The notes beneath the pieces were generated by a model. That model was not told the DNA's origin and made no database searches. It worked only from the letters and a program-made list of their open reading frames with translations. Below, piece after piece: positions 33,816 through 63,928 of a stretch of 64,000 bases of DNA. The DNA is from Dehalococcoidia bacterium (lineage in GTDB: Bacteria; Chloroflexota; Dehalococcoidia; Bin125): contig JAJDXE010000004.1 in the NCBI GenBank assembly GCA_022825265.1, forward strand, positions 42,343 to 106,342, written 5' to 3'. Within the stretch, counting starts at the first letter, position 1; the number at the start of each line of letters is the position of its first letter. The position numbers were made by a program, and so were the translations under genes.

Positions 33816-33845
33816 AACCGCTCCCCCCAAACGGGGGGAGCGGTT
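33816..33845. repeat. Perfect 13-bp-stem hairpin (aaccgctcccccc-aaac-ggggggagcggtt) between the SBP and permease genes. This is a REP-family unit and a probable intra-operon attenuator.
   Basis: Direct read. It shares the CTCCCCCC/GGGGGGAG core with the other copies. Confidence 0.55.
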
Positions 33846-33865
33846 TCGAAGGAGTCTGATCGACG

Positions 33866-34801
33866 ATGCGTAGCGAACTCGGAGCGACCGCCTTCGGACG
33901 GCTGCTGCGGTCGATCGCGGTCGTGCTCGGTGTGGTCTCGATCGTTTTTTTCTTGAGCCGCGGCGCCGGCGATCCGGTGTCGCGGCTTGCGCCGATCGAC
34001 GCCACTCAACAGGAGATTGAAGAAGCGAAGGAGCGCTACGGGCTCAACGACCCGATGATCGAGCAGTACGGTCGCTTCCTCTGGGACATTGTGCGGCTGG
34101 AGTTTGGACAGTCCTTCCGCGCGACGCGGCCGGCGACTGATGTGGTCGGCGAGCGGTTGGTGGCAACGATCCAGCTCGGCGCGGCCGGACTGCTCGTCGC
34201 GTTCCTGATTGGCATTCCGTTAGGGATCGTGGCCGCCGTGCGTCGCGGCGGCGCGACCGACATCTTCAGCAGGATCGGCGCCCTGTTTGGTCAGGCGGTG
34301 CCCAACTTCTGGCTGGGCCTGATGTTGATCCTCTTTGTCGCGCTGTACATCGACTGGATACCGACGGGCGGCCGCACGACACCGCAGAGCATCATCTTGC
34401 CGGCTATCACGCTGGGATCGTTCCCGGCGGCGGCGGTGATGCGATTTACCCGTTCGGCGATGCTCGACACGCTGCAGCAGGACTACATCCGCACCGCTCG
34501 GGCTAAGGGTCTGAGCGAGCGCGCCGTGTTGTTCAAGCACGCCTTGCGCAACTCAATGCTCGCTGTGATCACGTTGCTTGGGCTGCAGGTCGGCAACATC
34601 CTCTCCGGCGCGATCATCGTCGAGACCGTCTTCGCCTGGCCCGGCCTCGGTCAGTTGATCATTCAGTCGATCGTGGCGACCGACTATCCGGTCGTACAGG
34701 CCTCGGTATTGCTGACGTCAGTCTGGATCGTGTTCATCAATCTCGTGGTTGATGTGTCCTACACGTTTATCGATCCGCGCATTCGAACGGGAGCGATCTG
34801 A
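33866..34801 (+). CDS. ABC transporter permease (DppB/OppB-like).
   Basis: 311 aa with six TM helices and the EAA-like loop ...ARAKGLSERAVLFKHALRNS. Confidence 0.85.
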   Translation: MRSELGATAFGRLLRSIAVVLGVVSIVFFLSRGAGDPVSRLAPIDATQQEIEEAKERYGLNDPMIEQYGRFLWDIVRLEFGQSFRATRPATDVVGERLVATIQLGAAGLLVAFLIGIPLGIVAAVRRGGATDIFSRIGALFGQAVPNFWLGLMLILFVALYIDWIPTGGRTTPQSIILPAITLGSFPAAAVMRFTRSAMLDTLQQDYIRTARAKGLSERAVLFKHALRNSMLAVITLLGLQVGNILSGAIIVETVFAWPGLGQLIIQSIVATDYPVVQASVLLTSVWIVFINLVVDVSYTFIDPRIRTGAI

Positions 34802-34804
34802 CCC

Positions 34805-35710
34805 GTGGCCGAGTCGCCAGCCCCCGCCCAGGCAGTTGAGGATCCGTTCGCCAGACAGCGGCGCAACTGGCGCGTCCGTTCGCCGAAGACGCTGATCGCC
34901 ACCTTCTCGATTCTCTTGCTGTTCGTCGTATTGGGCATCTTTGGATCGCAGATCGCGCCCGAGGATCCGTTCAAGCTCAACCTCGTCGGCCGGCTGCAGC
35001 CGCCCTTCTTCGAGGCGGAGGGCAGCCTCGATCATCCGCTCGGCACCGACGATCTGGGCCGCGACACGCTGAGCCGTCTGATTTACGGCGCCAGGATCTC
35101 GTTGCTGGCGATCGTGATGGTGATCCCGCTGGCGACCGTGATCGGTTCCATCCTCGGCATCCTGGCGGGCTGGTTTGGAGGTTGGACGAGCCGTGTGATC
35201 ATGGCGCTCGTCGATCTCCAGTTGGCGATGCCAGCGATCCTGATTGCGGTCTTTCTGCGCGCGATCTGGGAACCGAGCCTGAGCAACGTGGTGATCGTGC
35301 TGGTCTTCGCCTTGTGGGCAACGTTCGCCCGCCTGGTGCGAGGCGAGACGCTGGGCCTGAAAGAGCGAGAGTTTGTCATAGCGGCGCGCACGATCGGCGC
35401 CAACGACCTGCGGATCATGGTGCGCCACGTGCTGCCCAGCTTGGTCAACTCGATCGTCATCCTGGCGACGCTGAACGTCGCCACGGTGGTCATCGCCGAA
35501 GCCGGGCTGAGCTTCCTCGGCGTCGGGATTCCGCAGGACTCGATCTCCTGGGGCATCATGATCTCACAGGGGCGCGGTGTGATTGTGACCGCGTGGTGGC
35601 TGGTCACGGTGCCGGGGATCGCGATTATCGTGGTCTCGTTGGTCGTCAACCTGTTCGGCGACTGGCTGCGGGACTTCCTGGACCCCCAACTACGGAACAT
35701 CCAGAGATAG
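34805..35710 (+). CDS. ABC transporter permease (DppC/OppC-like).
   Basis: 301 aa with N-terminal TM helices and ...AARTIGANDLRIMVRHVLP. Confidence 0.85.
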   Translation: MAESPAPAQAVEDPFARQRRNWRVRSPKTLIATFSILLLFVVLGIFGSQIAPEDPFKLNLVGRLQPPFFEAEGSLDHPLGTDDLGRDTLSRLIYGARISLLAIVMVIPLATVIGSILGILAGWFGGWTSRVIMALVDLQLAMPAILIAVFLRAIWEPSLSNVVIVLVFALWATFARLVRGETLGLKEREFVIAARTIGANDLRIMVRHVLPSLVNSIVILATLNVATVVIAEAGLSFLGVGIPQDSISWGIMISQGRGVIVTAWWLVTVPGIAIIVVSLVVNLFGDWLRDFLDPQLRNIQR

Positions 35711-35737
35711 GCGCGGACCCACGCGAAGGAGCCGCAG

Positions 35738-37300
35738 ATGAGCTGGCAGTCCGAACTGGACGAGATGGAGCGGCGGGCGGACCTCGCTCGGCAGATGGGT
35801 GGCCCCGACAGCGTCGCCTTCCACCACGGACGCGGCAAACTGACGGTCCGTGAGCGGATCGATCTGCTGACCGACCCGGGCGAATTCCAGGAGACCGGCG
35901 TGCTGGCCGGGAATCCCGAGTGGGACGGCAACGAACTGACCGGCCTGACGCCGGCCAACTCGGTCGTCGGTGTGGCCCGGATCAACGGTCGCAAGGTGGC
36001 GGTGCAAGGCGACGATTTCACTATCCGTGGAGGCTCGGCCGACGGCATGATCGGGACCAAGGGCGGCTGGGCCCAGCGCCATGCCTACATGAACCGGATT
36101 CCCTACGTGCGACTGCTCGATGCGACCGGCGGCAGCGTCAAGCACTTCGAGCAGCTCGGCCGCACGTACGTCGTCGGACCGGAGGTCGGCGGCGGCACGG
36201 GCGTCGACGACCTGCTCTGGTACATGCCGGTCGTCAACGTGGTGCTGGGCTCCGTGGCCGGCGCGCCGGCTGTGATCGCAGCCGACGGCCACTTCAACGT
36301 GATGGTCAAAGGCACGAGCCAGCTCTTTGTCGGCGGACCGCCGGTGGTCAAAGCCAGCCGCGGGTTGGAGATCTCCAAGGAGGAACTCGGCGGCGAAGAT
36401 GTCCACGTCTACGGCAACGGTGTGGTCCAGAACCTCGCCGAGACCGAGGCGGAGGCAATGGCGCAGGCGCGCAGATTCCTGAGCTATCTGCCCCAGAACG
36501 TCTGGGAAATGCCTCCACGCACTGAACCGACGGACGATCCCGATCGACGTGAGGAGCGCCTGCTGTCGGTGATCCCGCGCAACATGCGGCGGATCTACAA
36601 CGCGCGCAAGATCCTCGACTGGGTGTTGGACAAGGACTCGTTCTTCGAGATTCAACCGCACTGGGGCAAGTCGCGGATTACGGGCCTGGCCCGGGTCGAC
36701 GGCTATCCGGTTGGAGTGATGATCAACAACCCGCGCGAGAACGGCGGCTCACCGAACAAGGCGACGTCGGAGAAGATCATGCGCATGATCTCGCTATGCG
36801 ACAACTTCCACCTGCCGTTGATCTACTTCTGCGACGAACCGGGATTCTCGGTCGGCCCGGCCGACGAGCAGTCCGGCATCATCCGCACCGGCGCCCGGCT
36901 GATGCTGACCAGCCGGCTCTCGCAGATGCCGTATCTGGTGTTCATCACGCGTCAGGCTTACGGGGTCGCGGGTGGACTGCAGTACCGACGAGGCAACGCG
37001 CTCTATCGGCGCTACGCCTGGCCCTCGGCCCACTGGGGATCGATGCACATCGAAGGCGGAGTGACCGCCGCTTACCGCCGAGAGATCCGCGAAGCCGATG
37101 ACCCAGAGGCGAAGCGTCTGGAGATTGAGGGGCGGCTGAACGAGATCCGCTCACCGTTGCGGACAGCGCACGCGTTTGGCATCGAGGACATGATCGATCC
37201 GCGAGATACGCGTCCGCTGATGGTCGAGTTTGTTCGCGACGCGCAGTCATACATCCAGCAACATCTCGGTCCGACGGCGCGAATTCCATATCTGCCCTGA
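35738..37300 (+). CDS. Carboxyltransferase-family protein (acyl-CoA carboxylase beta / decarboxylase alpha-like), stand-alone.
   Basis: 520 aa. Paralogous to 6043..7611 (…LTVRERIDLLTDPGEFQETG…). No biotin carboxylase or BCCP gene is nearby. Confidence 0.8.
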   Translation: MSWQSELDEMERRADLARQMGGPDSVAFHHGRGKLTVRERIDLLTDPGEFQETGVLAGNPEWDGNELTGLTPANSVVGVARINGRKVAVQGDDFTIRGGSADGMIGTKGGWAQRHAYMNRIPYVRLLDATGGSVKHFEQLGRTYVVGPEVGGGTGVDDLLWYMPVVNVVLGSVAGAPAVIAADGHFNVMVKGTSQLFVGGPPVVKASRGLEISKEELGGEDVHVYGNGVVQNLAETEAEAMAQARRFLSYLPQNVWEMPPRTEPTDDPDRREERLLSVIPRNMRRIYNARKILDWVLDKDSFFEIQPHWGKSRITGLARVDGYPVGVMINNPRENGGSPNKATSEKIMRMISLCDNFHLPLIYFCDEPGFSVGPADEQSGIIRTGARLMLTSRLSQMPYLVFITRQAYGVAGGLQYRRGNALYRRYAWPSAHWGSMHIEGGVTAAYRREIREADDPEAKRLEIEGRLNEIRSPLRTAHAFGIEDMIDPRDTRPLMVEFVRDAQSYIQQHLGPTARIPYLP

Positions 37301-37305
37301 AGACG

Positions 37306-38553: not shown

Positions 38554-38584
38554 ACCCTGATCGGTCCGACCGCACGAGGCTAGT

Positions 38585-41023
38585 ATGCCAACGCGTGCTC
38601 CCGTGTTGGATGTTGTTGTTTCCAGAGGTGGATTCGTGAACTTGCCGCTACACGATGTCCGAGTGCTTGACCTGTCCGATCATCGGGCAGCTCTCGGCAG
38701 CAGGATGCTGGCCGACCTCGGCGCCGAGGTCACGATGGTGGAGCCGCCGGGCGGGAGTTCGATTCGGCATCTCGCGCCGTTCGTCGACGATCAGCCGTCG
38801 CTCGACGGCAGCTACCAGCATCTCTACTTCAACGTCAACAAGCGCTCCGTCGTGCTCGACTGGCGAACCAGAGAGGACATGGAGCGACTGCTCGAACTGG
38901 TTCAGGCGGCCGACATCCTGATCGAATCGAACCAGCCGGGCGAGTTTCCGGTCGCCCAGGTTCGCGCGGCGAATCCGCATCTAATCGTTGTCTCGGCGAC
39001 GCCGTACGGGTCCCGCGGTCCAAGATCCAGCTGGCGCGCAACCGACCTGACAACCACGGCCGCCGGCGGACTGCTGCAGATCAGCGGCGAGCGCGACGAT
39101 CCACCGGTGCACGGCGCGGCGTTTCCCGGTCACACGATGACCGGACTGACCATCGCCTCATCGGCGATGACGGCGCTGCACGGTCGTGATCGGACACCCG
39201 GTCAGCCCGGGTGCCAGATCGATATCTCAATGCAGGAGGCGACCTCTCTGCAGGTCGTCCAGACATCCAATCCCAACATCTGGCGCTGGCGTGGGGAGGC
39301 GCCGTATCGGCCGGCGCTCTCGCAGGTGATTCGCTGCGCCGACGATCGGTGGATGGCCTGTAACATCTCGCCGAACCGGCTGCCCGAGTTCATCGCCATG
39401 CTGGACGAAGCCGGCGTCGAGCACCATCTCGATCCCGACAACTGGGAAGTCATCCATCGCGGCGACCGCGCGGCCTGGCAGTACCTCGAGAATCCGCTGC
39501 AAGACCTGGCCAAGGACCTGGCTGCCGTCTGGCCGCGACAGCAGCTGCTGACCCGACTCTGGGAAGCCGGCATGCCTGCCATGCCCACGCTGCGCTTCAG
39601 CGAGTTCGCCGAGACTGAGCACTATCCAAGCTCAGGTCAGTTCATTGATGTCGAGACACCGGCAGTCCGCAAGTCGTTGAGCTACTCGCGCAGCCCGCTC
39701 GATCCGGTGCAGTCGCCGCTGCCGATGCGGCCTGCCCCACAGCTCGGAGCCCACGACCACGAGTCTGACACGGTGAGGGGTGAACGCTCTACGGAGCCGC
39801 CGGGCAAGTTCCCCGACATGCCGTTGGCGGGCATTCGCGTCCTCGACCTGACCTGGGTTGCCGCTGGTCCGCTCACAACCCGGCTAATGGCCAACTTCGG
39901 CGCCGAGGTGATCAAAGTCGAGTCCAGCGGCGAGCGCATGGATCCGCTGCGGGTACAGCCGGTCAACGGCGAGTTCAACTTCGACCTTCCGGACCTGTAC
40001 AACGAGGCCAACACGGGCAAGAAGTCGCTGACGCTCAACCTGGCCGATGAGCGAGGCAAGCAAGTGCTTCGGGAACTCGTGGCTCGCTGCGACGTGATGG
40101 TCAACAACTACTCGGCCGGTTCGCTGGCTCGTATGGGATTCCCCTGGGAGGAACTGCGGCAAATCAACCCGCGTCTGATCAGCGTCCACCTGCCCGGCGT
40201 CGGCGGCGATAGCCCCTGGCGGCCGCTGCGCACGCTGGGCAATCTGCTCAAGGCGGCGGCGGGGATGAACTTCCAGATGGGCTATCCGCATCAGCCGCCG
40301 CGAGGCATGGGGGTCGCGTATCCCGACTTCACGACGCCACACGTCGGGGTGACGGCGATCCTGTCGGCGCTGCGCGCGCTCGAAGAGATGGGTGAGGGCC
40401 GAGAGATCGAACTGAGCCAGCTCAGCGCGACGGTTGCCTTGCTCGGCGCGCAGTGGATGCAGTTCGATCAACTCGGCGAGGACCTGCCGCGAATCGGTAA
40501 CCGCGATCCAAACATGTGCCCGCATGGCGTGTTTCCCTCGCAGGGAGACGACCAGTGGGTCGCGATCGCAATGGAGTCCGACGGCCAGTGGCCGGCATTC
40601 GCGACGGCGATTCGCCGTCCAGACTGGGCGGAGCAGTCGGAACTTCAGTCGTTGTCCGGCAGGCAGGCTTGCGAGGATGAGATTGAAGCTGCGATCGCTC
40701 AGTGGACTAGCGAGCTCAGCAAGTGGGACGCCGCCGAGCAGATGCAAGCGGTGGGCATCGCCGCCAACGCGGTCGAGGACCTGCGCGACATGATGGATAT
40801 CGACGAGCACTTCCGCGATCACTACCAGCGGGTCGAGCAGCCCTCGCATCCTGGCTTCGGCATCTGGGTTGATCGACCGCCGTGGGAATTCGCCCATCTG
40901 GAACCGCGAGTGATCGAGCGCTCGCCGATGCTGGGCGAGCACAACGAAGAGATCCTGAGCGGGTTGCTCGGCAAGACCGGGGATGAGATCGCCGAGCTGA
41001 TCGCGGCTGGTGTCGTCGGTTGA
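38585..41023 (+). CDS. Duplicated-domain family-III CoA-transferase (two CaiB/BaiF modules in one 812 aa chain).
   Basis: Module 1 begins LPLHDVRVLDLSDHRAALGSRMLADLGAEVTMVEPP. Module 2 begins MPLAGIRVLDLTWVAAGPLTTRLMANFGAEVIKVES. A ~60 aa linker separates them. Confidence 0.7.
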   Translation: MPTRAPVLDVVVSRGGFVNLPLHDVRVLDLSDHRAALGSRMLADLGAEVTMVEPPGGSSIRHLAPFVDDQPSLDGSYQHLYFNVNKRSVVLDWRTREDMERLLELVQAADILIESNQPGEFPVAQVRAANPHLIVVSATPYGSRGPRSSWRATDLTTTAAGGLLQISGERDDPPVHGAAFPGHTMTGLTIASSAMTALHGRDRTPGQPGCQIDISMQEATSLQVVQTSNPNIWRWRGEAPYRPALSQVIRCADDRWMACNISPNRLPEFIAMLDEAGVEHHLDPDNWEVIHRGDRAAWQYLENPLQDLAKDLAAVWPRQQLLTRLWEAGMPAMPTLRFSEFAETEHYPSSGQFIDVETPAVRKSLSYSRSPLDPVQSPLPMRPAPQLGAHDHESDTVRGERSTEPPGKFPDMPLAGIRVLDLTWVAAGPLTTRLMANFGAEVIKVESSGERMDPLRVQPVNGEFNFDLPDLYNEANTGKKSLTLNLADERGKQVLRELVARCDVMVNNYSAGSLARMGFPWEELRQINPRLISVHLPGVGGDSPWRPLRTLGNLLKAAAGMNFQMGYPHQPPRGMGVAYPDFTTPHVGVTAILSALRALEEMGEGREIELSQLSATVALLGAQWMQFDQLGEDLPRIGNRDPNMCPHGVFPSQGDDQWVAIAMESDGQWPAFATAIRRPDWAEQSELQSLSGRQACEDEIEAAIAQWTSELSKWDAAEQMQAVGIAANAVEDLRDMMDIDEHFRDHYQRVEQPSHPGFGIWVDRPPWEFAHLEPRVIERSPMLGEHNEEILSGLLGKTGDEIAELIAAGVVG

Positions 41024-41055
41024 GCCGAGCGGCTACCCATCGATAGGGAGACTCC

Positions 41056-42018: not shown

Positions 42019-42054
42019 AGCCACTGGCCGGAATGTTGGAGATCGGGGCCCGTC

Positions 42055-43107: not shown

Positions 43108-43116
43108 TGGAAACGC

Positions 43117-45633
43117 CTAGCGAATCACCTCGTCGACGAGCAACTGGGTGAACTCTTCCTCGCTCAGGCCGAGTTCCTGCCGATAGACCTGCTCGTTGTG
43201 CTCTCCGAAGAAGGGCGCACGGCGGATCGGCAAACGCTCCCCGTTCCAGAGGAACGGCTGGTTCTGAGCCATGAATCTGATTCCGACCGGGTGATCGAAC
43301 TCGTGGAAGAAGCCCTGCATCGACGGATCGGTGTCAACCAGGTCCTCAATGTCTTCGTTCGGTCCAGCCGGTACCCCGACCGCTTCGAATGAGGCAGTCG
43401 CCTGCCACACGCCCTGTCCGCAGGTCCACGCTGTGATCGCTGCCTCGATCTCGTCCTCAGCGGCCTTGCGCCCAGCCAGCGTGCGCAGATCGTCGCGCGA
43501 AGCCAGGTCGTCGCGACCAATCACACGGCAGATCTCCAGCCAGTCGACCGTGTTCCGCGCCGACAGCGCCAACCAGCGATCATCCCCTGCGCAGCGGAAC
43601 AGTCCGTGCGGAGACATCTCAGGCGAGCGATTGCCGCGTCTTGGCGACAACTCACCGTTGGCAAGCTGCTCGATCAGCTCCGTGTCGAGCAGGTGGATGC
43701 CAGCCTCGTACTGAGGAATCTCGATCTCCTGCCCGACCCCGGTGCGATCACGCTGGATCAGCGCCGAAATGATCGCCGTCACCGCCAGCGGGCCGAGCGT
43801 AAAATCGGTATGCAGCAACACACCGGTCGGCTTGCGGTCGGCAGCGCCGGTGTGGGCGGCCAGTCCGCAAAGCGCGACCACGCTATTCCCGATCCCCTTC
43901 CACGACGCCTTCGGACCCCAGGTCCCCATCACCGGCAGGCTGCACACAACGATCCGAGGATTGATCTTCTTCAGGTCTTCAAACCCCAGCCCCAATCGCT
44001 TCATCACGCCGCCCGTGAAGTTGTCGGTTACGACATCCGACTCGCGGATCAGGTCGTAGGCAACCCGAAGTCCGTCGGGCGCGCCGAGGTTGAGATTGAT
44101 GCTGCGCTTGTCGGTGTTGCAGTCCTGGAAAAACGCGCCGGTCTCAATCGTCGGCGGATCATGCGCAGGCAGCGCCACGCGAAGCGTGTCGATCCGGGCG
44201 TCGGACTCAACCTTGATCACATCCGCGCCGAGGTTGGCCATCAGCTCCGTCGTCAAGGGCCCCGCCGCCTGCCAGCAGAAGTCGATGACGCGAATCCCCT
44301 TGAGCGGCAGGCTGTCTCGATGGGCTGAGGACCTAGGCCGCGATCCATTTGCTCCCCCCTCTGGGGGGAGCTGTCGCGAAGCGACTGAGGGGGGTCCCGC
44401 CGCCGCTGCGGTACGGCGATTCGATCCCGCAACCAACCCACTGCCAACCAAATCGTCATATTCCGCAGAATCCAGACCAAGCAACTCCGACAGCACATTC
44501 CACGTATCCGCGCCCAACACCGGCGCCGGCCGGCCGACCGGCTCATAGCCGGTCGAGTGGATCGGCAGGCGCGGGAGATCGATCTCCCGCTCGAACTGAG
44601 GATGCTCAACCGAGAGGAATGCCCCTCGCTCATGTAGATGCGAGTCCTCGATGATGTCGCGGGCTGAGTTCACCGGCACGGCCAGGAACCCCCGGGACTG
44701 ACCCTCGTAGCACAGCTCCTCCCGATCCACCGAGGCGCAGGCTCGCTGAAACGCCTGGTGAGTCTCGCCGCCCCACTCCGGGATGTAGATGTCGCCCGGA
44801 TACTCCGCTCCGATGATTCCGTCGTAGCCCGCCCGCTCATACAGCCACTGTCCGAAGGCCGCCCAGCGTTCGTGCGTGTTCGGAGTAATCCCGAACGTCA
44901 GCCACCGACCGTCCCTGGCCTGCAACAGCGAAGAAATATCGCCCCCCGGACGAAACGCCTTCTCGCCCATCTGCCGCCACATGTTCTCGTTGGCGAAATG
45001 GATCGTGGTCGAGAGAATCGCTTCCTGCAGCGAGATGTACGCATGACTCGCGCGGACGCCGTTGCGCCGGTCGTAGAGCATCGCCACGCCGGTCGCCGCC
45101 GCGACCTGGCTGGCCTGCTTGTAAGCCAGCTTGCCCGCCGGATAGTCGGGCGCGACCTCAGGAAAACCCAGGCCCTCCATCAGACCACCGGCGGCGACGC
45201 CGACAATGTCAGACGCTGGCAGTCCCTCGCCGCCGCGCCGCGTCACCACGTCAATCACGCCCAGGTGCGGATGCACGCGCTGCAACCGTTCGCGGTCATA
45301 GAAGCGGCGCACGTCTGCATTCTTGTCCAACGGCGCGAGCACAACATCGGCGGCATCAAGCAGCCGATCGATCAGATCCCAAGCCCCCGGAGCATCGAAG
45401 TTCAGCGCCAGGCTGCGCTTGCCTGCGTTGTAGAGCAGATGCCGCAGCCCGCTCTCAATATCCGTCCCGTCGTCCAGATGCGGCCCGTTGATTCGCAGCG
45501 CGTCGCCCGTTGTTGCTTCAACCCGGATCACATCCGCGCCGAAGTCCGACAGCCAGCGAGCGCCCAGCGCCAGGCACTCGTCGCTCAGGTCGATCACGAC
45601 CGAGCTCGCCAGCGGAAGATCGGATAGCGCCAT
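43117..45633 (-). CDS. Duplicated-domain family-III CoA-transferase (838 aa), paralog of 38585..41023. A REP element is embedded in its inter-domain linker.
   Basis: Module 1 begins VVIDLSDECLALGARWLSDFGADVIRVEA. Module 2 begins LPLKGIRVIDFCWQAAGPLTTELMANLGADVIKVES. The linker ...AAAAGPPSVASRQLPPEGGANG... is encoded by the repeat at 44349-44400. Confidence 0.7.
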   Translation of the reverse strand: MALSDLPLASSVVIDLSDECLALGARWLSDFGADVIRVEATTGDALRINGPHLDDGTDIESGLRHLLYNAGKRSLALNFDAPGAWDLIDRLLDAADVVLAPLDKNADVRRFYDRERLQRVHPHLGVIDVVTRRGGEGLPASDIVGVAAGGLMEGLGFPEVAPDYPAGKLAYKQASQVAAATGVAMLYDRRNGVRASHAYISLQEAILSTTIHFANENMWRQMGEKAFRPGGDISSLLQARDGRWLTFGITPNTHERWAAFGQWLYERAGYDGIIGAEYPGDIYIPEWGGETHQAFQRACASVDREELCYEGQSRGFLAVPVNSARDIIEDSHLHERGAFLSVEHPQFEREIDLPRLPIHSTGYEPVGRPAPVLGADTWNVLSELLGLDSAEYDDLVGSGLVAGSNRRTAAAAGPPSVASRQLPPEGGANGSRPRSSAHRDSLPLKGIRVIDFCWQAAGPLTTELMANLGADVIKVESDARIDTLRVALPAHDPPTIETGAFFQDCNTDKRSINLNLGAPDGLRVAYDLIRESDVVTDNFTGGVMKRLGLGFEDLKKINPRIVVCSLPVMGTWGPKASWKGIGNSVVALCGLAAHTGAADRKPTGVLLHTDFTLGPLAVTAIISALIQRDRTGVGQEIEIPQYEAGIHLLDTELIEQLANGELSPRRGNRSPEMSPHGLFRCAGDDRWLALSARNTVDWLEICRVIGRDDLASRDDLRTLAGRKAAEDEIEAAITAWTCGQGVWQATASFEAVGVPAGPNEDIEDLVDTDPSMQGFFHEFDHPVGIRFMAQNQPFLWNGERLPIRRAPFFGEHNEQVYRQELGLSEEEFTQLLVDEVIR
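44349..44400. repeat. REP-family palindromic unit (gctcccccc-tct-ggggggagc ... gaggggggtcccgc) located inside a coding region.
   Basis: Direct read. It is homologous to the intergenic copy at 49211-49285 and is translated in-frame on the minus strand. Confidence 0.55.
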
Positions 45634-49210: not shown

Positions 49211-49342
49211 GAGCTCCCCCTCTGGGGGAGCCTGCCCCACACTCGATGCGGGGCTGTCGCGGAGCAACTGAGGGGGCTCTCCGCGTCAATTGTCAGGTCG
49301 GCCCCCTCCGTCACTTCGTGACACCTCCCCCAGAGGGGGAGG
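49211..49342. repeat. Compound REP-like element: two perfect hairpins (gctccccc-tct-gggggagc and acctccccc-aga-gggggaggt) flanking a GC-rich core.
   Basis: Direct read. Homologous to the copies at 44349, 56759 and 63803. Confidence 0.55.
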
Positions 49343-49358
49343 TCTTTGAGGAGCAGCC

Positions 49359-52234: not shown

Positions 52235-52242
52235 ACCAGCCG

Positions 52243-54674: not shown

Positions 54675-54751
54675 GCAAGTCGCTCCGCCCAAGGACCAGC
54701 GATAGATCATTCCGATTCCGCTCATTGTGAGCGCAAATGAAAAACTTCAGA

Positions 54752-54779
54752 TTGACGTAGCTTCTACCCTTCGATAATT
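54752..54779 (+). promoter_or_regulatory. Candidate sigma-70-like promoter (TTGACG -35, GATAAT -10) in the AT-richer gap upstream of the second SBP gene.
   Basis: ttgacg at 54752-54757 and gataat at 54773-54778. The spacer is short (15 nt), so this is weak. Confidence 0.25.
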
Positions 54780-54842
54780 TCGACCCGAAGCGCGAAGCCC
54801 TTCTAGACCCGGGTGACGCGGAGCGAGAACAGAAGGAGACGT

Positions 54843-56738
54843 ATGGAACGCAACTATTGGTCACGGATGAGGCGGCAGCGGATGAGCCGTCGATCCTTGC
54901 TGCGCGCGAGCGCCCGGGCAGGTGTGGGCGCCGCAGGTCTGGCGCTCGTCGGTTGTGGCGACGATGATGACGACGATCAGCAGGCCGCTGCGCAGGTCCA
55001 ACAGCAACAGCAGGCGATGCAGCAGCAGGCCGAACAACAGGCCATGCAGCAGGAGCAGCAGGAAGCTCCCGCTCAGCAACAGCAACAACAGCAGCAGGCG
55101 GCCGTCGCCCAGGCGCAGGACCAGGCGATGGTCGACAGCCAGGGCAACACGATCCAGACCGGCGGCGTCTTCAAGCGCGCAGCCGCATCGCAGCTCACGC
55201 TGATCCGCTTCCCCTGGAACTCGGCCGGCAACAACGGCACCATCGACCCAACCGGCTACATGTACAACTGCCTCACGCAGTACGGCGGCGTCCAGCTCGA
55301 CGAGACAGCCAACCGCTTTTGGGAGTACGCCAACCCCGACTGGGAGATCAAGCCCGATGTCGCCGCCGGTTGGGAAACGCCCGACAACCTGACCTGGATC
55401 TTCGACATCAAGCCCAACGTCGTCTTCCACGACGGTCGCGCCTTCACCGCCGACGACGCGGCGCACAGCTACGAGGCGATCCGCGACCAGGGCGTTTCCG
55501 GCGGCGGTTCACCGGCCTACAACCTGGGCAAGGTGATCGCCGGCACCGAGGCGATCGACGACTCAACGATGCGACTCAGCCTGGGCGAGCCGCGCGGCTT
55601 CACCGGCGCGCTGACCGCCTACGTTCGCATGGGTCACCCCGAAACTGCCGGCTCCGCCACCGCGCCGGCGCTCGACGTGGCGCGCAACGAAGAGGCCGTG
55701 CTGATCGGCACCGGCCCCTGGCGCTTCGACACCGACAGCTACGACCCCAACACCGGTTGGCGTCTGACGCCCTTCCCAGAGAGCCACATGGGCGCGCCCA
55801 ACATGGACGAGATCACCTACACGATCTTCTCCGACGCCGACGCCATCGGTATCGCCCTCGAAGCCGGCGACATCGACTCCCACAACGGCATCCCCTTCAA
55901 CAATCCCGAGACCATCGACCGGCTGATCGCCAGCGACGACCACTGGGGTTGGGCCGGCACCAGCCTCGGCGGACAGATCTTCCGCTTCGCGATCGACGTC
56001 GAGCCGACGACCGACCCGCGCGCCCGGCACGGCGTCTGGCGAATGGTCGACCAGGAGCGCGTCGTGCGCGACTACTTCGGTCCCTACGACGACGCTGGAC
56101 GACTCTTCTTCCAGCGCGGCTCGCAGGGCTACATCGAGGACCAGGACCGGCCCAACTACGACCCGGCCGAGGGCGCTAAGCTGCTCGACGCCGCGGGCGT
56201 CGGCGAAGGCAGCGTGCTGACCGCCAGCACCCTCCCGATTCGCCCCTACGCTCCGGCCCTCGCACAGTTGCTCCAGGCCGAACTCTCGACCCTCGACATC
56301 GAACTCGAGCTCGACCCGACCGAGTACAACGTCATGATCGAGAAGCAGCAGGCCGGCGACTTCGGCAACTTCCTGATCGGTTTCGGCAACTGGATCCGCC
56401 CCGAGTCCGCAGCGCTCGCCATGGTCATGCAGGACGCCCTGCACGGCGAAGGCAACGCCAAGCGCGGCGGCGACGCCAGCAACCCGATCCCGGTCCGCGA
56501 ACGTCCCTACATGGACAACTACTTCCACTGGCTCGACATGATCATCGATGTCCAGACCGGAAACCACGAGGACACCGAGGAATACTGGCGCTCGTTCAAC
56601 GACACCTTCCACGAGGTCATGTTCGCCCAGGCCATCGCGCGACAGCGCGGTGCGGAGTTCTACACCAACAGGGTCCACGTGCCCGACCCGGGCCCCACGA
56701 CCCCGAACCCGCAAACGGTCTGGCTCGAACAGACCTAA
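54843..56738 (+). CDS. ABC transporter substrate-binding lipoprotein, family 5, paralog of 31864..33786, with the same Tat/lipobox and poly-Q linker architecture.
   Basis: Signal MSRRSLLRASARAGVGAAGLALVGCGDDDDDDQQ..., then a Q-rich tract, then the SBP_bac_5 core. The start at 54843 has AAGGAG 4 nt upstream. Confidence 0.8.
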   Translation: MERNYWSRMRRQRMSRRSLLRASARAGVGAAGLALVGCGDDDDDDQQAAAQVQQQQQAMQQQAEQQAMQQEQQEAPAQQQQQQQQAAVAQAQDQAMVDSQGNTIQTGGVFKRAAASQLTLIRFPWNSAGNNGTIDPTGYMYNCLTQYGGVQLDETANRFWEYANPDWEIKPDVAAGWETPDNLTWIFDIKPNVVFHDGRAFTADDAAHSYEAIRDQGVSGGGSPAYNLGKVIAGTEAIDDSTMRLSLGEPRGFTGALTAYVRMGHPETAGSATAPALDVARNEEAVLIGTGPWRFDTDSYDPNTGWRLTPFPESHMGAPNMDEITYTIFSDADAIGIALEAGDIDSHNGIPFNNPETIDRLIASDDHWGWAGTSLGGQIFRFAIDVEPTTDPRARHGVWRMVDQERVVRDYFGPYDDAGRLFFQRGSQGYIEDQDRPNYDPAEGAKLLDAAGVGEGSVLTASTLPIRPYAPALAQLLQAELSTLDIELELDPTEYNVMIEKQQAGDFGNFLIGFGNWIRPESAALAMVMQDALHGEGNAKRGGDASNPIPVRERPYMDNYFHWLDMIIDVQTGNHEDTEEYWRSFNDTFHEVMFAQAIARQRGAEFYTNRVHVPDPGPTTPNPQTVWLEQT

Positions 56739-56758
56739 GCACCGATTCAAGCACTTCG

Positions 56759-56865
56759 CTCTCCCCCCTCTGGGGGGAGATGCCGAATGCCTGCCCCGGG
56801 CTTGGACCCGGGGGCAGAGGGGGGCTCCCCCTCGCCGAGAAGCGTTAGCCCCCTCCGGAGAAGGA
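56759..56865. repeat. Compound REP-like element (tctcccccc-tct-ggggggaga, ctgccccggg...cccgggggcag, gaggggggctccccctc) between the SBP and permease genes.
   Basis: Direct read. Its 3' half is homologous to 63893-63925. Confidence 0.55.
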
Positions 56866-56889
56866 GCGGGCTGATTTCGTAGCGGACCG

Positions 56890-57855
56890 ATGACCTACGT
56901 ACTCCGCCGCCTCGTCACCCAGCTGATCCCCGTCCTCTTTGTCGCCTCGATCCTGATCTTCGCCTCCGTGCGACTGATCCCCGGCGACCCGGTCGCCGGC
57001 GCCATCGGCGACGCGATGGGCAACACTGACCCCGAGGTCTACGAACAGCTCAAGGAAGAACTCGGCCTCAACAAGCCGATGTATGAGCAGTACTGGATCT
57101 GGCTGGGCCGAATCTTCACCGGAGACTTCGGCCAGTCGCTCACCGGACTGCCCGTCACCGAGATCCTCGGCAACGCCATCCCCGCCTCGGTCGAACTGGC
57201 CGGGCTGGCGATCATCATCGGCTTCACGCTCGGTCTCACTCTGGGCGTGCTCGCCGCCGTCAATCGAGGTGGCTTCTTCGACTGGTTCGCCGCCCTCTGG
57301 ACCGGCTGGAACATTGGCGTCCCCTCATTCGTCGCCGGACTGGTCTACCTGATCGTGTTCTCGGTCTGGTTCGACCTCACCCCCGTCTCCGGCCGAGTCC
57401 CCCTGACCGAGGATCCGCTCAAGGCCCTGGAACACCTCGCCCTGCCGTCCTTGGCCCTCGGTGGCATCGTCGCCGCCAACATCAGCCGCTTCACCCGGCA
57501 GTCCCTGCTCGACACCATGACCGAGGACTACATCCGCACCGCCCGCTCGAAGGGACTCACCAACCGGGCCGTCATCGTCCGTCACGCGCTGCGGCCTAGC
57601 CTGATTCCCGTCGTCACCATCATGGGACTCGAACTTGCCTCCATCCTCAGTGGCACGCTGGTCATCGAGACCGTCTTCACCTGGCCGGGACTCGGTCGAG
57701 CCCTGATTAACGCCGTCAACAACCGCGACTACACGGTCATCCAGGCCACGACAATCCTGCTCGTCTTCGTCTTTGTCGTCGTCAACCTGATCGTCGATCT
57801 CGTCTACGTCGGACTCGATCCACGTATCCGCATCGGTCAGGGTTCAGAGGTCTAG
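56890..57855 (+). CDS. ABC transporter permease (DppB-like), paralog of 33866..34801.
   Basis: 321 aa, with TM helices and ...ARSKGLTNRAVIVRHALRPS. Confidence 0.85.
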   Translation: MTYVLRRLVTQLIPVLFVASILIFASVRLIPGDPVAGAIGDAMGNTDPEVYEQLKEELGLNKPMYEQYWIWLGRIFTGDFGQSLTGLPVTEILGNAIPASVELAGLAIIIGFTLGLTLGVLAAVNRGGFFDWFAALWTGWNIGVPSFVAGLVYLIVFSVWFDLTPVSGRVPLTEDPLKALEHLALPSLALGGIVAANISRFTRQSLLDTMTEDYIRTARSKGLTNRAVIVRHALRPSLIPVVTIMGLELASILSGTLVIETVFTWPGLGRALINAVNNRDYTVIQATTILLVFVFVVVNLIVDLVYVGLDPRIRIGQGSEV

Positions 57856-57857
57856 CC

Positions 57858-58760: not shown

Positions 58761-58807
58761 CATCACACACATGGTGAAGGTCGTCGGTTGCCGTTGCGAG
58801 TAGCGAC

Positions 58808-59119
58808 ATGGTGATTCCGCTGGTCGAAGAGCGTACGGATGAGATTGTCCGGCTCTGCCGACGCCACCAGGTGCAACGGTTGTGGGTCTTCGGCTCGGCG
58901 GCGAGCGGCGCATGGGATCCGAAGTCCAGCGACCTCGATTTCTTGGTCCGATTCAACCCTGAGGCGCAGGTGACCTACGTCGGCGAGTTCGCCCGTCTAC
59001 AGACAGGTTTGAGCGAACTGTTCGGCCGTCCGGTCGATCTGATCATCGACCGGGAATTCAGCAATCCGGAGTTCCGCGCCTCGATTGAGCAGACTCGGAC
59101 GCCCTTGTATGAATCCTAG
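58808..59119 (+). CDS. Nucleotidyltransferase-domain antitoxin (MntA-like) of a HepT/MNT pair.
   Basis: GS motif (VFGSAASGAWDPKSSDLD) of minimal nucleotidyltransferases. 103 aa. Confidence 0.7.
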   Translation: MVIPLVEERTDEIVRLCRRHQVQRLWVFGSAASGAWDPKSSDLDFLVRFNPEAQVTYVGEFARLQTGLSELFGRPVDLIIDREFSNPEFRASIEQTRTPLYES

Positions 59120-59450
59120 ATCCCGCTCTTACCTGAGGGACGCGCGCGACAACGGGACGCTCATTCTGAATTCGGTCGCGCAGCGGACCCTGGCCGACTA
59201 CGAATCCGATGTCAGGCTCCGTCATCAAGTCGAGCGGGAATTCATGATCATTGGCGAGGCGCTCGATCGGCTCGACAGATTGGAGCCGGAACTGGCAGCC
59301 CGGATCACCGATTTCCGGGGATACATCGGACTTCGAAACGTACTGAATCACGGATACTCGGACGTCGATCATCCAACCATGTGGCGCACGATCGAGATCG
59401 AACTTCCCATCCTGATTCGGGAGATTGACGGCCTGCTGGCTGAGGTGTGA
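59109..59450 (+). CDS. HepT-like (DUF86) RNase toxin.
   Basis: Rx4HxY motif (RNVLNHGY). The start ATG at 59109 overlaps the MNT stop by 11 nt. 113 aa. Confidence 0.7.
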   Translation: MNPRSRSYLRDARDNGTLILNSVAQRTLADYESDVRLRHQVEREFMIIGEALDRLDRLEPELAARITDFRGYIGLRNVLNHGYSDVDHPTMWRTIEIELPILIREIDGLLAEV

Positions 59451-59523
59451 TTCGCCGCCGCGTCTGACTCGCCTCTACCCTGTTCCGCGAACCGCAACTG
59501 AATCCCAACCAAGGAGACGACCT

Positions 59524-60327: not shown

Positions 60328-60340
60328 GAAGACACTCATC

Positions 60341-61360
60341 ATGGTCACCAACAACTTCGACTGGCTCGCCACCAACCAGGAGCCCGCCGTCGACCCCGAC
60401 CAGAAAATCATCGACCCCCACCACCACCTCTGGGACGCACGCCCTGACGGTCCGCGCCTGCGCTACTTCCTCGATGAGCTGCTGGAGGACACGAAGGACC
60501 TCAACGTTCGCCAGACGGTCTTCATCGAGTGCGGCGCGATGTACAACGCCGACGCCCCAACCGCCATGGCGCCCGTCGGCGAGACCGAGTACGTCGCCGG
60601 AGTCTCGGCCCAGAGCGCCAGCGGTCTCTACGGAGAGATCCGCGCCTGCGCAGGCATCGTCAGCCACGCCGACCTGCTGCTGGGCGCCGCCGTCGGCGAG
60701 GTGCTGGACGCCCACATGGCGACCAGCGACCGCTTCCGCGGCATCCGGCACCACGCCAGCTGGGATGCCTCACCCGACGTGCCCAACTCGCGCATCGTCG
60801 AGATCCCGCACATCTACATGAACGAGGCCTACCGCGAAGGCTTCGCCGAGCTTGGCAAGCGCGGCCTCAGTTTCGAGGCCTGGCTCTACCACCCGCAGAT
60901 CCCCGAGCTCACCGATCTCGCCCGCGCCTTTCCCGACACCACGATCATCCTTAATCACCTCGGCGGACCGCTGGGCGTGGGACCGTACGCCGGCAAGCAC
61001 GACGAGTATTTCCCCGACTGGCGCGACTCGATCTCCGAGTTGGCCACCTGCGAGAACGTCGTCGCCAAAGTCGGCGGAATCCAGATGGTTGTCAACGGCT
61101 TCGGCTGGGAACAGATGGAGCGCGCGCCGTCGTCGGACGAGTTGCTAGCGGTCAACCGCCGCTGGTACGAGCACATGATCCAATCGTTCGGTCCCGACCG
61201 CTGCATGTTCGAGAGCAACTTCCCGGTCGACAAGGTCTGCTGCAGCTACACGAACATGTACAACCAGTTCTTCAAGCTCGTCGCCGACTACCCCCAGGAC
61301 GAAAAGGATCAAATGTTTCACGACACCGCCCAGCGCGTGTATCGGCTCGAGCCCCACTAA
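60341..61360 (+). CDS. Amidohydrolase-2 family protein.
   Basis: N-terminal metal-binding IIDPHHHLWD, then ...LNHLGGP..., then C-terminal ...MFESNFPVDK. Confidence 0.7.
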   Translation: MVTNNFDWLATNQEPAVDPDQKIIDPHHHLWDARPDGPRLRYFLDELLEDTKDLNVRQTVFIECGAMYNADAPTAMAPVGETEYVAGVSAQSASGLYGEIRACAGIVSHADLLLGAAVGEVLDAHMATSDRFRGIRHHASWDASPDVPNSRIVEIPHIYMNEAYREGFAELGKRGLSFEAWLYHPQIPELTDLARAFPDTTIILNHLGGPLGVGPYAGKHDEYFPDWRDSISELATCENVVAKVGGIQMVVNGFGWEQMERAPSSDELLAVNRRWYEHMIQSFGPDRCMFESNFPVDKVCCSYTNMYNQFFKLVADYPQDEKDQMFHDTAQRVYRLEPH

Positions 61361-61369
61361 GCGGGTAGG

Positions 61370-61451
61370 CCCTCACCCCAGCCCTCTCCCTCGGAGAAGG
61401 CACGCTCCCCTTCCGATCCCCTCTCCCTCTGGGAGAGGGCTAGGGTGAGGG
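61370..61451. repeat. REP-like nested inverted repeat with 21-bp arms (ccctcaccccagccctctccc / gggagagggctagggtgaggg, one mismatch) enclosing ccctctccc-tct-gggagaggg.
   Basis: Direct read. It lies between the amidohydrolase and dehydrogenase genes and is probably also a terminator. Confidence 0.55.
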
Positions 61452-61504
61452 TCCCGCCCTGTCCTACCATTCAGCCAACAACCCAAAACCGAAAGCGTCA
61501 ACCC

Positions 61505-62464
61505 ATGCCGACCATCGTCCAGGCCGTACCGATTGAAGACGAACTCCACGACATGCTCGCCGAAGCCGGCGATGTCCGCGTCGTCGACGGACGAGACCGC
61601 GGCGCGTTCATTGAGGCCGTCAAGGACGCCGACGGCGTGCTGGGCAACCCGCTGATCAAGATCGACCAGCAGGTCGTTGACCTCGCCCCCAACCTCAAGG
61701 TCGTCGCCACCACCTCGGTCGGCTTCGACGCTTTCGATGTCCCCTTCCTGACCAGTAACGGCATCGCCCTCTGCAACACGCCAGGCGTGCTCAGTGCCGC
61801 CGTCGCCGACCTGACGATGGCCTTCCTGCTCATGCTCTCCAGGCACCTGATGGAGTTCGAGGCCTACAACCGCTCGGGCGGCTGGGGACGCCGCGAGCCG
61901 TATCCCGGGCTCGCCAATGACCCACTGGGCAAGACGATCGGCATCGTCGGCTTCGGCCGAATCGGACAGGAAGTCGCCCGCCGAGCCAACTTCGCCGGCA
62001 TGAAGGTCATCTGGTACGACATCTACGACAACCCGCCCGCAGACGCACCACCGGCCGAGAAGCGAACCCTCGACGAACTACTCGCCGAGTCCGACTTCGT
62101 CAGCGTCCACACCGACCTCAACCAGTCCTCACGCCACATGATCGGTGCCCGCGAGATCGCGCTGATGAAGCCAACCGCCTACCTGATCAACACCTCGCGA
62201 GGCCCAGCCGTCGACCAGAAGGCCCTCCACGACGCCCTGGTCGCCAACCAGATCGCCGGTGCCGGCCTCGACGTCCTCGAAGACGAGCCACCTGACCCCG
62301 ACGAGCCAATCGTCAAGCTGCCCAACGTGATCACATTCCCCCACATTGGAACCGCCACCGAGGAAACTCGCTACGCCATGCGAGCCCTGGCAACCCGAAA
62401 CGTCGTCAACGTCGTCACCGGCCAAACCCCCGAAGCAATCGTCAACCCCGAGGTGCTCGGCTAA
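61505..62464 (+). CDS. D-2-hydroxyacid dehydrogenase / glyoxylate-hydroxypyruvate reductase family protein.
   Basis: GIVGFGRIGQEVARRA NAD motif and the catalytic ...SVHTDL...R...E...H... pattern. Start refined to 61505. The track extension upstream is a translation of the REP element. Confidence 0.8.
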   Translation: MPTIVQAVPIEDELHDMLAEAGDVRVVDGRDRGAFIEAVKDADGVLGNPLIKIDQQVVDLAPNLKVVATTSVGFDAFDVPFLTSNGIALCNTPGVLSAAVADLTMAFLLMLSRHLMEFEAYNRSGGWGRREPYPGLANDPLGKTIGIVGFGRIGQEVARRANFAGMKVIWYDIYDNPPADAPPAEKRTLDELLAESDFVSVHTDLNQSSRHMIGAREIALMKPTAYLINTSRGPAVDQKALHDALVANQIAGAGLDVLEDEPPDPDEPIVKLPNVITFPHIGTATEETRYAMRALATRNVVNVVTGQTPEAIVNPEVLG

Positions 62465-62544
62465 ACGCGTATCGGATCGTCGAGGTGCCGCGACGCTATC
62501 CTCAATCCCGTACGACCCCCATCACCGATAGATCGGACTGAACC

Positions 62545-63798
62545 ATGTCCTGGCGACCCAAGCGCATGAAATTCGGACTATTCCTCGCTCCATTCCACTC
62601 CGTCGGCGAACACCCGACCCTCGCCCTTCAGCGCGACGTGGAGCTGATCGAGCACCTCGACGACCTCGGCTACGACGAAGCCTGGATCGGCGAGCACCAC
62701 TCGTTCGCTCGCGAGATCATCTCCAACCCGATGATCTTCATCGCCGCCCTGGCTGAGCGAACCAAGCACATCAAGCTCGGCACCGGCGTCGTCTCCCTGC
62801 CCTACCACAATCCGCTGATGATCGCCGACGACCTGCTCCAGCTCGACCACATGACTCGCGGTCGCGTGATGCTCGGAGTTGGACCCGGCGCGCTCACCTC
62901 CGACGCCGTGCAGATGGGCATCGAGCCAACCACCCAGCGCCAGCGCATGGCCGAGGCATTCGACGCCATCGTCCAGCTCGCCCGGGACGAAGAGCCGGTC
63001 TCGATCGAGACCGACTGGTTCTCCTTGACCGAGGCTCGCCTGCAGATGGCCTGGTACTCCGATCCGCATCCCGAGCTCGCCGTCGCCGTCATCCTCACCC
63101 CGTCCGGACCGCAACTTGCCGGCAAGCACGGCGCCAGCCTGCTCTCCGTCGCCGGCGCCGACTCCGATGGCATGAAGCAGGTCTGGGACTGGTACGAAGA
63201 AGCCGCAACCGAGAACGGCCACGAGGTATCGCGCAAGAACTGGCGCGTCGTCACCGCGATCCACATCGCCGAGACCCGCGCCCAGGCGATCGATGATGTC
63301 CGCGCTGGATTCCTCAAGCGCGCCTACGTCGGCGACGTCCGCGATCCCGGCCGCCGCGGCGGCATCGCGCTGCAGATGGCCGACACGATCGAGGAAGCGA
63401 TCGACAAGAATATGGTCATCGTCGGCTCGCCCGACGACGCCGTCGACCAGATCGAGGCCATGCACGACCGCTCCGGCGGCATCGGCGGACTCCTCGGCAT
63501 GCACCACGAGTGGGCCTCGACCGACGCCACCAAGCGCAGCTTCGAGTTACTCATGCGCTACGTCGCCCCGAGGTACCAGGGACAGCTCGACCGCCTTGTC
63601 GCCTCCCGCGACTTCGTCGAAGATCGCCAGCTCGACATCTTCGGCGCCGGTCAGAAAGCAATGGCCAAAGCCTTCGCCGACGCCGGCAAGGACCTGCCCG
63701 AAGCCTTCCAGCAAGCCATCGCCGCGCGTGCCGAAGAAACCAACGGAGCCAGCGCCCCCTCCGAAGCCGAAGCTGAGGCCGAACCCGTCGCCGACTAG
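62545..63798 (+). CDS. LLM-class flavin-dependent oxidoreductase.
   Basis: 417 aa. MKFGLFLAPFH...GYDEAWIGEHH is the classic luciferase-like N-terminus. Confidence 0.75.
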   Translation: MSWRPKRMKFGLFLAPFHSVGEHPTLALQRDVELIEHLDDLGYDEAWIGEHHSFAREIISNPMIFIAALAERTKHIKLGTGVVSLPYHNPLMIADDLLQLDHMTRGRVMLGVGPGALTSDAVQMGIEPTTQRQRMAEAFDAIVQLARDEEPVSIETDWFSLTEARLQMAWYSDPHPELAVAVILTPSGPQLAGKHGASLLSVAGADSDGMKQVWDWYEEAATENGHEVSRKNWRVVTAIHIAETRAQAIDDVRAGFLKRAYVGDVRDPGRRGGIALQMADTIEEAIDKNMVIVGSPDDAVDQIEAMHDRSGGIGGLLGMHHEWASTDATKRSFELLMRYVAPRYQGQLDRLVASRDFVEDRQLDIFGAGQKAMAKAFADAGKDLPEAFQQAIAARAEETNGASAPSEAEAEAEPVAD

Positions 63799-63802
63799 CA
63801 GC

Positions 63803-63928
63803 CTGCTCTCCCCTCTAGGGGAGTTTCCCTAGCTATCCTCTCCCCCCTTGGGGGAGAGGACCCGACCATCCCCTTTTCTCCCCCCTTTGGGGGGGAGATG
63901 CCGCAGGCAGAGGGGGGCTCCCGGGCCT
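63803..63928. repeat. Cluster of three or four REP-like hairpins (ctcccc-tcta-ggggag, tctcccccc-ttg-gggggagagg, tctcccccc-ttt-gggggggaga, gaggggggctccc).
   Basis: Direct read, downstream of the LLM gene stop. Confidence 0.55.

Follow-up and report, generated by a model that had tools for sequence, protein, structure and literature searches.

BoxC/PIT/TM-class repeats in a Dehalococcoidia contig: a probable Chloroflexota variant of the intrastrand-triplex elements

The BoxC repeats of Escherichia coli were re-described by Hoyne and Maher (2000) as potential intrastrand triplex (PIT) elements and were later named TM_ECO (Holder et al. 2015, PMC4666352). TM_ECO, whose pattern is CCCTCNCCC N3-6 GGGNGAGGG N3 GGGNGAGGG, is an intrastrand triplex of the purine motif, class II, and 3610 occurrences have been reported in 262 proteobacterial genomes (PMC4666352). 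In vitro BoxC forms a stable triplex, as seen by circular dichroism and nuclear magnetic resonance (NMR), with a melting temperature of 70-82 C; in E. coli it is always intergenic and often arranged in inverted pairs of two subtypes, and PIT/TM_ECO elements are associated with local genomic variability (PMC4666352). Here we describe a family of palindromic repeats in a stretch of 64,000 nucleotides from a Dehalococcoidia bacterium (contig JAJDXE010000004.1, positions 42,343 to 106,342; hereafter the window), whose host lineage is a Dehalococcoidia-type Chloroflexota common in sponge metagenomes. The original prediction, made from the sequence of the window, had described six or more loci of repetitive extragenic palindromic (REP)-like elements. 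We consider it likely that these elements belong to the BoxC/PIT/TM intrastrand-triplex class as a Chloroflexota variant subfamily, an identity that is well supported; they probably fold when single-stranded, and their first hairpin may act as a 3'-end barrier.

A full unit, read 5' to 3' on one strand, is composed of a pyrimidine arm X-CTCCCCCC, a first loop of 3-4 nt that is mostly TCT, a purine arm GGGGGGAG-X', a spacer, and a third segment Y-GAGGGGGG, the G-box, which is mostly followed by CTCCC. The G-box mirrors the purine arm and does not complement it, as in GGGGGGAGA...AGAGGGGGG and GGGGGGAGG...GGAGGGGGG, and such a mirror segment means that a single DNA strand could fold into a hairpin whose major groove takes the third segment in antiparallel orientation. 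It is this defining 3' G-box, missed by the original prediction, that on present sequence evidence places the family in the BoxC/PIT/TM class. Each of the window's five full units, like 36 copies taken from relatives, presents pyrimidine arm, loop, purine arm, spacer and mirror G-box in that order. Moreover, in copies seeded by the exact hairpin 19-mer alone (CTCCCCCCTCTGGGGGGAG), the sequence G[AT]GGGGG follows within 60 nt downstream in 73 of 105 cases, against 16 of 105 in the direct-repeat control. The spacer of the Dehalococcoidia lineage is a mini-hairpin with a GNA triloop (TGCC-GAA-GGCA, TGTCGC-GAA-GCGAC or TGCC-GCA-GGCA), and in other lineages it is merely 3-5 nt long (TTA, TTG, CTG). 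Among the window's five full units, three have a second loop of 11-14 nt; in the other two, where a further hairpin is nested, it reaches 36-37 nt.

The composition of the third segment follows that of the hairpin. T-A pairs face a third-strand A in 126 cases, a T in 10 and another base in 4, so that A or T accounts for 136 of 140. In the ninth triple, Y is A, T or G where X'=A (18, 9 and 1 copies), G or A where X'=G (30 and 4) and T or A where X'=C (9 and 1); these triples agree with the purine-motif prediction in 66 of 72 copies, and T opposite C-G has been reported as a weak natural option in antiparallel triplexes (PMC9757063). The third segment follows the code, G*GC, A*AT and T*AT, of a purine-motif triplex whose third strand is antiparallel. 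The mini-hairpin does not set Y, because the same stem, TGTCAC..GTGAC, carries Y=A, T or G according to X'. Coordinated changes in all three segments are also observed: CTTCC/GGAAG/GAAGG in L032 and again, as an independent case, in a copy from Coatesbacteria (L026), and CCGCCC/GGGCGG/GGCGGG in L015. For the Watson-Crick helices, pairing holds in 96.8% of the alignment cells, and two-sided changes are seen at 10 of the 12 pairs; these counts lean toward the model, since the alignment was fitted to it. The covariation of the three segments spans Chloroflexota, Anaerolineae, Caulobacteraceae, Comamonadaceae and Coatesbacteria.

A covariance model trained on 18 copies from relatives finds five full units, one related unit and three hairpin-only copies in the window, with E-values down to 1e-14; all of them lie between 33.8 and 64 kb, and the model finds no units over 1-33 kb. 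The core CTCCCCCC-N3-4-GGGGGGAG has four matches in the 64 kb (33821, 44352, 56761, 63878) and none in 100 shuffles, and in a scan for perfect hairpins, those pairing a C-run with a G-run (stem 8-13 bp, loop 3-4 nt) turn up at the six loci only, with no such hairpin in 1-33 kb. The Watson-Crick part of the units folds as DNA with z = -3.4 to -6.7, and ViennaRNA predicts hairpins only. Flanking sequence is shared as well: GGCAGAGGGGGGCTCCC is common to the copies at 56813 and 63906, and CTGTCGCGAAGCGACTGAGGGGGG, at 44371, recurs at 49254 with 3 mismatches. On the gene map, five intergenic loci begin 5-30 nt past a stop codon, between co-directional genes of the + strand, and both junctions between a substrate-binding protein (SBP) gene and a permease gene (SBP_bac_5 then BPD_transp_1) carry a repeat locus. 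The hairpins at all six loci, their shared flanks, their position after stop codons and at SBP-to-permease junctions, and the presence of one coding copy, all of which the original prediction had proposed, thus stand. Its view of the six loci as one type holds in part, in that the locus at 61370-61451 is a different subtype with CCCTCNCCC stems and the one at 33816 is a plain hairpin that has no third segment.

The family is also dispersed, as had been proposed, and is no mere matter of G/C runs: the 19-mer occurs in more than 116 stretches of genomes of the Genome Taxonomy Database (GTDB), so the copies of the window are not the only ones. Its matches include several complete Dehalococcoidia chromosomes and sponge-derived Chloroflexota metagenome-assembled genomes (MAGs), the chromosomes of relatives carrying many copies, and extend to Anaerolineae, Caulobacteraceae, Comamonadaceae, Coatesbacteria and others.

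The closest link with E. coli is the unit at 61419-61451, the single exact match of the TM_ECO pattern in the window; 5409 of 5426 E. coli genomes carry copies with as much as 94% identity to it, at a median of 16 places each. One example from E. coli, a BoxC pair in inverted arrangement, stands between ugpB, encoding an SBP, and ugpA, encoding a permease, and the window pair at 61370 has the same layout at the same kind of site. Copies of the TM_ECO pattern are also present in other sponge-type Dehalococcoidia loci and in Coatesbacteria, and in the lineage the BoxC-type subtype coexists with the subtype having C6/G6 stems (C6 units), the two replacing each other at the same sites. The window elements resemble BoxC/PIT/TM_ECO in their class II order, in their G/C-rich 9-nt stems, in being multi-copy, intergenic and often arranged in inverted pairs of two subtypes, and in varying between close relatives. 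They differ from it in several respects: five of the six window units have C6/G6 stems instead of CCCTCNCCC, the second loop of the C6 units is a mini-hairpin (11-37 nt, against 3 nt in TM_ECO), tandem hairpin-only units precede some of them, copies stand in frame in protein linkers, a sense-strand bias is seen here and not in E. coli, and the host belongs to Chloroflexota, whereas TM_ECO was reported from proteobacterial genomes. H-DNA mirror repeats share with these units the homopurine mirror symmetry and the purine-motif triple code; here, however, all three segments are on one strand, with arms of 8-9 nt and no long duplex to unpair.

Some observations weigh against this assignment. The five C6 units (CTCCCCCC/GGGGGGAG/GAGGGGGG stems) do not fit the TM_ECO consensus, and their second loops are outside the ranges of earlier triplex searches, which permitted 0-10 and 1-6 nt (PMC4666352), so that class membership rests on layout and not on sequence. 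The copies behind the covariation counts are related and not independent of one another, and part of the counts derives from an alignment that was fitted to the model; in some lineages the code is departed from by an extra A, in GGGAGAGGGG or AGAGGAGGG. Footprinting with dimethyl sulphate in E. coli found no stable triplex in vivo (PMC4666352). Finally, between co-directional genes of the lineage the G-box strand is sense in 17 cases and antisense in 5, on crude gene calls, a bias unseen in E. coli.

Other folds were considered for the same sequence and rejected. A riboswitch-like Watson-Crick hairpin, pairing the G-box with the C-run plus the loop, fails where loops differ, and there the mirror relation holds. 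A G-quadruplex would have just two G-runs per unit, with a complementary C-run in cis, and NMR on BoxC ruled it out (PMC4666352). A UUCG tetraloop on the reverse strand is out of register, the real loops being GNA/GAA triloops. In seven loci of Anaerolineae MAGs (L008, L013, L020, L037, L063, L089, L113) the hairpin lies inside a larger nested element, CCCCCCCCTC-AA-(TCCCCCCC AGA GGGGGGGA)-AGCCYGTY-(CTCCCCCC TCT GGGGGGAG)-TTA-GAGGGGGGG, where the brackets enclose hairpins; its three C-runs and three G-runs would make a three-way junction, or triplexes on both strands, possible.

The first locus, at 33816..33845 (+), is a hairpin-only copy, AACCGCTCCCCCC AAAC GGGGGGAGCGGTT, with no third (G-box) segment, and is flanked by the SBP gene 31783-33786 and the permease gene 33866-34801; its DNA fold is -17.9 kcal/mol (z -6.7). 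It was compared with 21753-21833 of L121 and 21761-21842 of L117. One relative, with a syntenic CoA-transferase of 99% identity, has GTTT in place of the loop AAAC and an unchanged stem; the loop is thus the reverse complement, which points to a flip of the palindrome by template switching or recombination between the arms. In a relative with 88% identity pairing is maintained through two-sided changes of the stem.

The unit at 44350..44399 (+) is a full class II unit of subtype C, scored at 61.3 bits by the covariance model. Its pyrimidine arm (44351-44359), TCT loop and purine arm (44363-44371) are followed by the mini-hairpin GTCGC-GAA-GCGAC (44374-44385) and the third strand T-GAGGGGGG (44386-44394). 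The next locus is an inverted doublet, which folds at -46 kcal/mol (z -6.5). Its left half, at 49212..49282 (+), is a full unit of subtype C (26.1 bits) with arm 49213-49220, purine arm 49224-49231, a nested extra hairpin at about 49232-49254, a mini-hairpin at about 49255-49268 and the third strand T-GAGGGGG at 49269-49276. The right, inverted half at 49296..49343 (-) is a full unit of subtype G (37.1 bits) which reads, on the - strand, C-CTCCCCC TCT GGGGGAG-G TGTCAC GAA GTGAC G-GAGGGGG.

Between the SBP gene 54813-56738 and the permease gene 56890-57855 stands the full unit of subtype A at 56759..56829 (+; locus to 56868; 61 bits). It has its arm at 56760-56768, its purine arm at 56772-56780 and the third strand A-GAGGGGGG at 56816-56824, and its second loop, TGCC-GAA-...-GGCA, encloses a nested hairpin at 56788-56812. 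The locus also holds an additional hairpin, GAGGGGG GCT CCCCCTC, at 56817-56833 and a degenerate inverted partner at 56821-56868 (12.7 bits, E 0.11). The nested variant of this unit is also present in L105. The nested palindromic module, CTGCCCC..GGG CTYGA CCC..GGGGCAG, occurs at 49232-49254 and 56788-56812 of the window, at about 2665-2690 of L105 and at 6836-6904 of L050. The nested 22-nt hairpin of the 49212 unit is missing in the L117 ortholog, and the module may be a separate mini-repeat that inserts into triplex-type units.

The locus at 61370..61451 is an inverted pair of BoxC/TM_ECO type, with units on both strands. The right unit, 61419-61451 (+), reads CCCTCTCCC TCT GGGAGAGGG CTA GGGTGAGGG, and the covariance model scores a related unit here, 61418-61457 (+), at 20 bits; the left unit, 61370-61398 (-), has a degenerate pyrimidine arm. 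In the last locus two tandem hairpin-only units at 63803..63860 (+), CTCTCCCC TCTA GGGGAG and CCTCTCCCCC CTT GGGGGAGAGG, precede a full unit of subtype A at 63876..63922 (+; 62.1 bits). The latter has its arm at 63877-63885, the loop TTTG, a purine arm up to 63898, the mini-hairpin TGCC-GCA-GGCA at 63899-63909 and the third strand A-GAGGGGGG at 63909-63917, and ends 11 nt upstream of the ATG of the next gene (63933). Arrays with the same arrangement of hairpin, about 20 nt, hairpin and full unit are found in L021, L029, L070, L053 and L064.

The coding copy is the unit at 44350-44399, which lies antisense within an open reading frame (ORF) of 838 aa (43117-45633, -) that is a fusion of two CoA_transf_3 domains, and which encodes the inter-domain linker PPSVASRQLPPEGGANG. 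A second fused double CoA-transferase gene is present in the window at 38585-41023 (+), and fused homologs are known from Chloroflexota/Dehalococcoidia MAGs. Among homologs the linker is hypervariable: the unit is antisense in some lineages and sense in others, the 890-aa homolog P0005 shows a tandem expansion of the unit, both fused CoA-transferases of L120 (10001-12538 and 14616-17012) carry a sense unit, and the linkers of deep homologs (43-48% identity) are unrelated. Rickettsia palindromic elements (RPE) and intragenic REPs are comparable in being palindromic repeats in frame within protein-coding genes, but the window units have no CGTC tag, differ in sequence and host, and are mostly intergenic. 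The linker copies show a route from repeat to coding sequence.

At orthologous sites the units may be kept, lost or exchanged. The doublet at 49212-49343 is kept in L117, L120 and L121, whose syntenic CoA-transferase is 88-99% identical. At the site between the amidohydrolase and 2-Hacid_dh genes, occupied by the 61370 pair in the window, the BoxC pair is absent in L122 (94%) and L124 (86%), and in L123 the right half is present beside a C6 doublet. Between the luciferase and TPK genes the window has two hairpins and a C6 unit, where L122 has a lone unit of BoxC type, L123 a doublet of that type and L124 no unit. L123 carries at 7061-7147, at the site that corresponds to the window's second SBP-to-permease junction (56738-56890), an unrelated 14-bp hairpin, GGGCGCGGGCGCT...AGCGCCCGCGCCC, in place of a triplex-type unit, which suggests that a stable hairpin of whatever type is favoured at this junction. 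Such gain, loss and swapping indicate that the units behave as turnover-prone elements; both filled and empty orthologous sites are present, with flanks too diverged to read a target-site duplication. In the same region, at 58808-59450, a small gene for a nucleotidyltransferase (NTP_transf_2) and an ORF of 121 aa that overlaps it stand between the ATP-binding cassette (ABC) permease genes and the next gene. This pair looks like a toxin-antitoxin-like insertion, and in the orthologous operons of L122 and L123, which do not have it, the permease stands directly before a gene of 266-267 aa.

The units all lie among the catabolic and transport genes that occupy one half of the window (CoA-transferases, ABC transporters, luciferase-like monooxygenases), and the housekeeping half (1-33 kb, with RecG, ArgRS, Trp/Tyr-RS, GatCA and PBP) has no units despite intergenic gaps of 100-220 bp. 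It contains, at 21694-21716, a perfect 10-bp palindrome, GCGGCGCGTC CAA GACGCGCCGC, between convergent genes (20483-21664, +, and 21724-22656, -), which is unrelated to the C-run/G-run family and has no T-tract. The sign of the GC skew tracks gene orientation, the coding strand having C > G in both halves, and the change of skew near 40 kb therefore reflects the direction of transcription and is no replication landmark.

If the elements are classical REP or REPIN palindromes, as the REP-like label of the original prediction suggests, they would be copied by a cognate REP-associated tyrosine transposase (RAYT, Y1 type) encoded elsewhere in the genome. They do share with REPs, with the mosaics called BIMEs and with REPINs the nature of short, GC-rich, multi-copy intergenic palindromes, the inverted doublets (as at 49212-49343), the mosaic clusters, the position downstream of genes, including SBP-to-permease junctions, and the long persistence at orthologous sites; presence/absence differences at such sites, and the fact that REPs within genes are already known (PMC3733652), go in the same direction. 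However, none of 35 units has GTAG or CTAC within 16 nt of either end, and the CGTC tag is found in just 2 of 35, consistent with chance; a GTAG just 5' of 61370 is taken as fortuitous, since neither the E. coli pair nor any C6 unit has it. Moreover, the conserved mirror G-box is no feature of REPs, and E. coli BoxC was reported without association with mobile elements (PMC4666352). A Pfam scan of 46 of the 52 window genes (six were not scanned directly) found no PF01797/Y1 or other transposase, and the Pfam lists of the L117-L124 loci, which cover about 160 kb, contain no transposases either. We therefore set the REP/RAYT assignment aside as very unlikely; of the proposal that the units are mobile-like, the turnover at orthologous sites is retained, and a transposase is missing from the scanned window genes and the relatives' loci. 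A structured non-coding RNA of whalefall-1 type (RF01762) seems even less probable. Whalefall-1 is the best non-tRNA Rfam match, at 63876-63919, and its consensus, UCuCuCC-UuGG-GGaGaGA, a 24-nt insert and AGgGuGAGG, repeats the layout of the units: a hairpin with a pyrimidine 5' arm and a purine 3' arm, a variable hairpin insert and a G-rich, near-mirror 3' segment. But the score is 20.9 bits against a gathering threshold of 37, the matches are on both strands, and the copies are located in operons, ORFs and inverted pairs, unlike an independent RNA gene; at gathering thresholds Rfam finds nothing in the window but the tRNA at 20351. Whale-fall metagenomes are the only source from which the motif has been described, as an RNA; its layout suggests that it may itself be a DNA repeat of triplex type and no RNA gene, a reading of whalefall-1 of which we found no published instance. 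That the likeness is a chance similarity of G/C runs in a genome of 65% GC is scarcely credible: GAGGGGGG alone is indeed not enriched in the window (5 observed, 4.2 expected), but the full core is (4 against 0 expected), composite flanks are shared, E-values reach 1e-14, and the same units recur in relatives and at orthologous sites.

A function selected at the RNA level, with the third segment incidental, is a more serious alternative, although on balance we find it unlikely. Here the hairpin would be an attenuator, or a barrier to 3'-to-5' exonucleases, that raises the SBP:permease ratio. REPs in malE-malF raise the expression ratio of SBP to permease, and the position of the copies 5-30 nt after stop codons of co-directional genes and at both SBP-to-permease junctions, the 17:5 preference for sense orientation, the pairing of the 33816 hairpin that survives two-sided changes and a loop flip, the unrelated hairpin of L123 at the same junction and the E. 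coli pair between ugpB and ugpA are all in keeping with such a role. On the other hand, no T-tract follows any copy, the units are found in either orientation, within ORFs and also at sites that are convergent or divergent, and an RNA hairpin leaves the mirror covariation of the G-box unexplained; purine-motif triplexes were reported not to form in RNA, and PIT elements have neither promoter nor terminator activity in E. coli (PMC4666352). In the window, a scan for canonical terminators and promoters gave none at the copies, and none of nine terminator-like sites in 44-64 kb coincides with a unit, so that the earlier suggestion of terminators is not upheld in its canonical form. The 17:5 bias itself fits either transcript-level selection or folding of the lagging-strand template.

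The mechanism we favour, membership of the intrastrand-triplex class, would combine a fold of the DNA with a side effect on the transcript. A strand carrying a unit would probably fold, hairpin plus third strand, whenever it becomes transiently single-stranded during replication, repair or transcription, and the units would be non-autonomous repeats that last, with turnover, in the intergenic space 3' of genes. When transcribed, the very stable first hairpin may protect the upstream message as a 3'-end barrier, favouring that of the SBP incidentally or adaptively.

Relabelling these elements as triplex-type repeats has practical consequences, in that a search for a RAYT or an annotation as terminators would probably mislead. 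A class known mainly from Proteobacteria and Cyanobacteria is now extended to uncultured Chloroflexota, in a variant architecture whose mini-hairpin second loop would escape earlier triplex searches. The covariation, if it is robust to a control for relatedness, would argue, on comparative grounds, that the third strand is of importance in vivo. That the three-way covariation implies a triplex fold itself selected in living cells, a point beyond the reach of the published footprinting in vivo, in a class much wider than reported, we regard as possible but somewhat doubtful. If this is true, the class takes in variants with mini-hairpin second loops, missed by searches limited to loops of at most 6-10 nt, probably includes the whalefall-1 motif, and can colonise protein linkers in frame.

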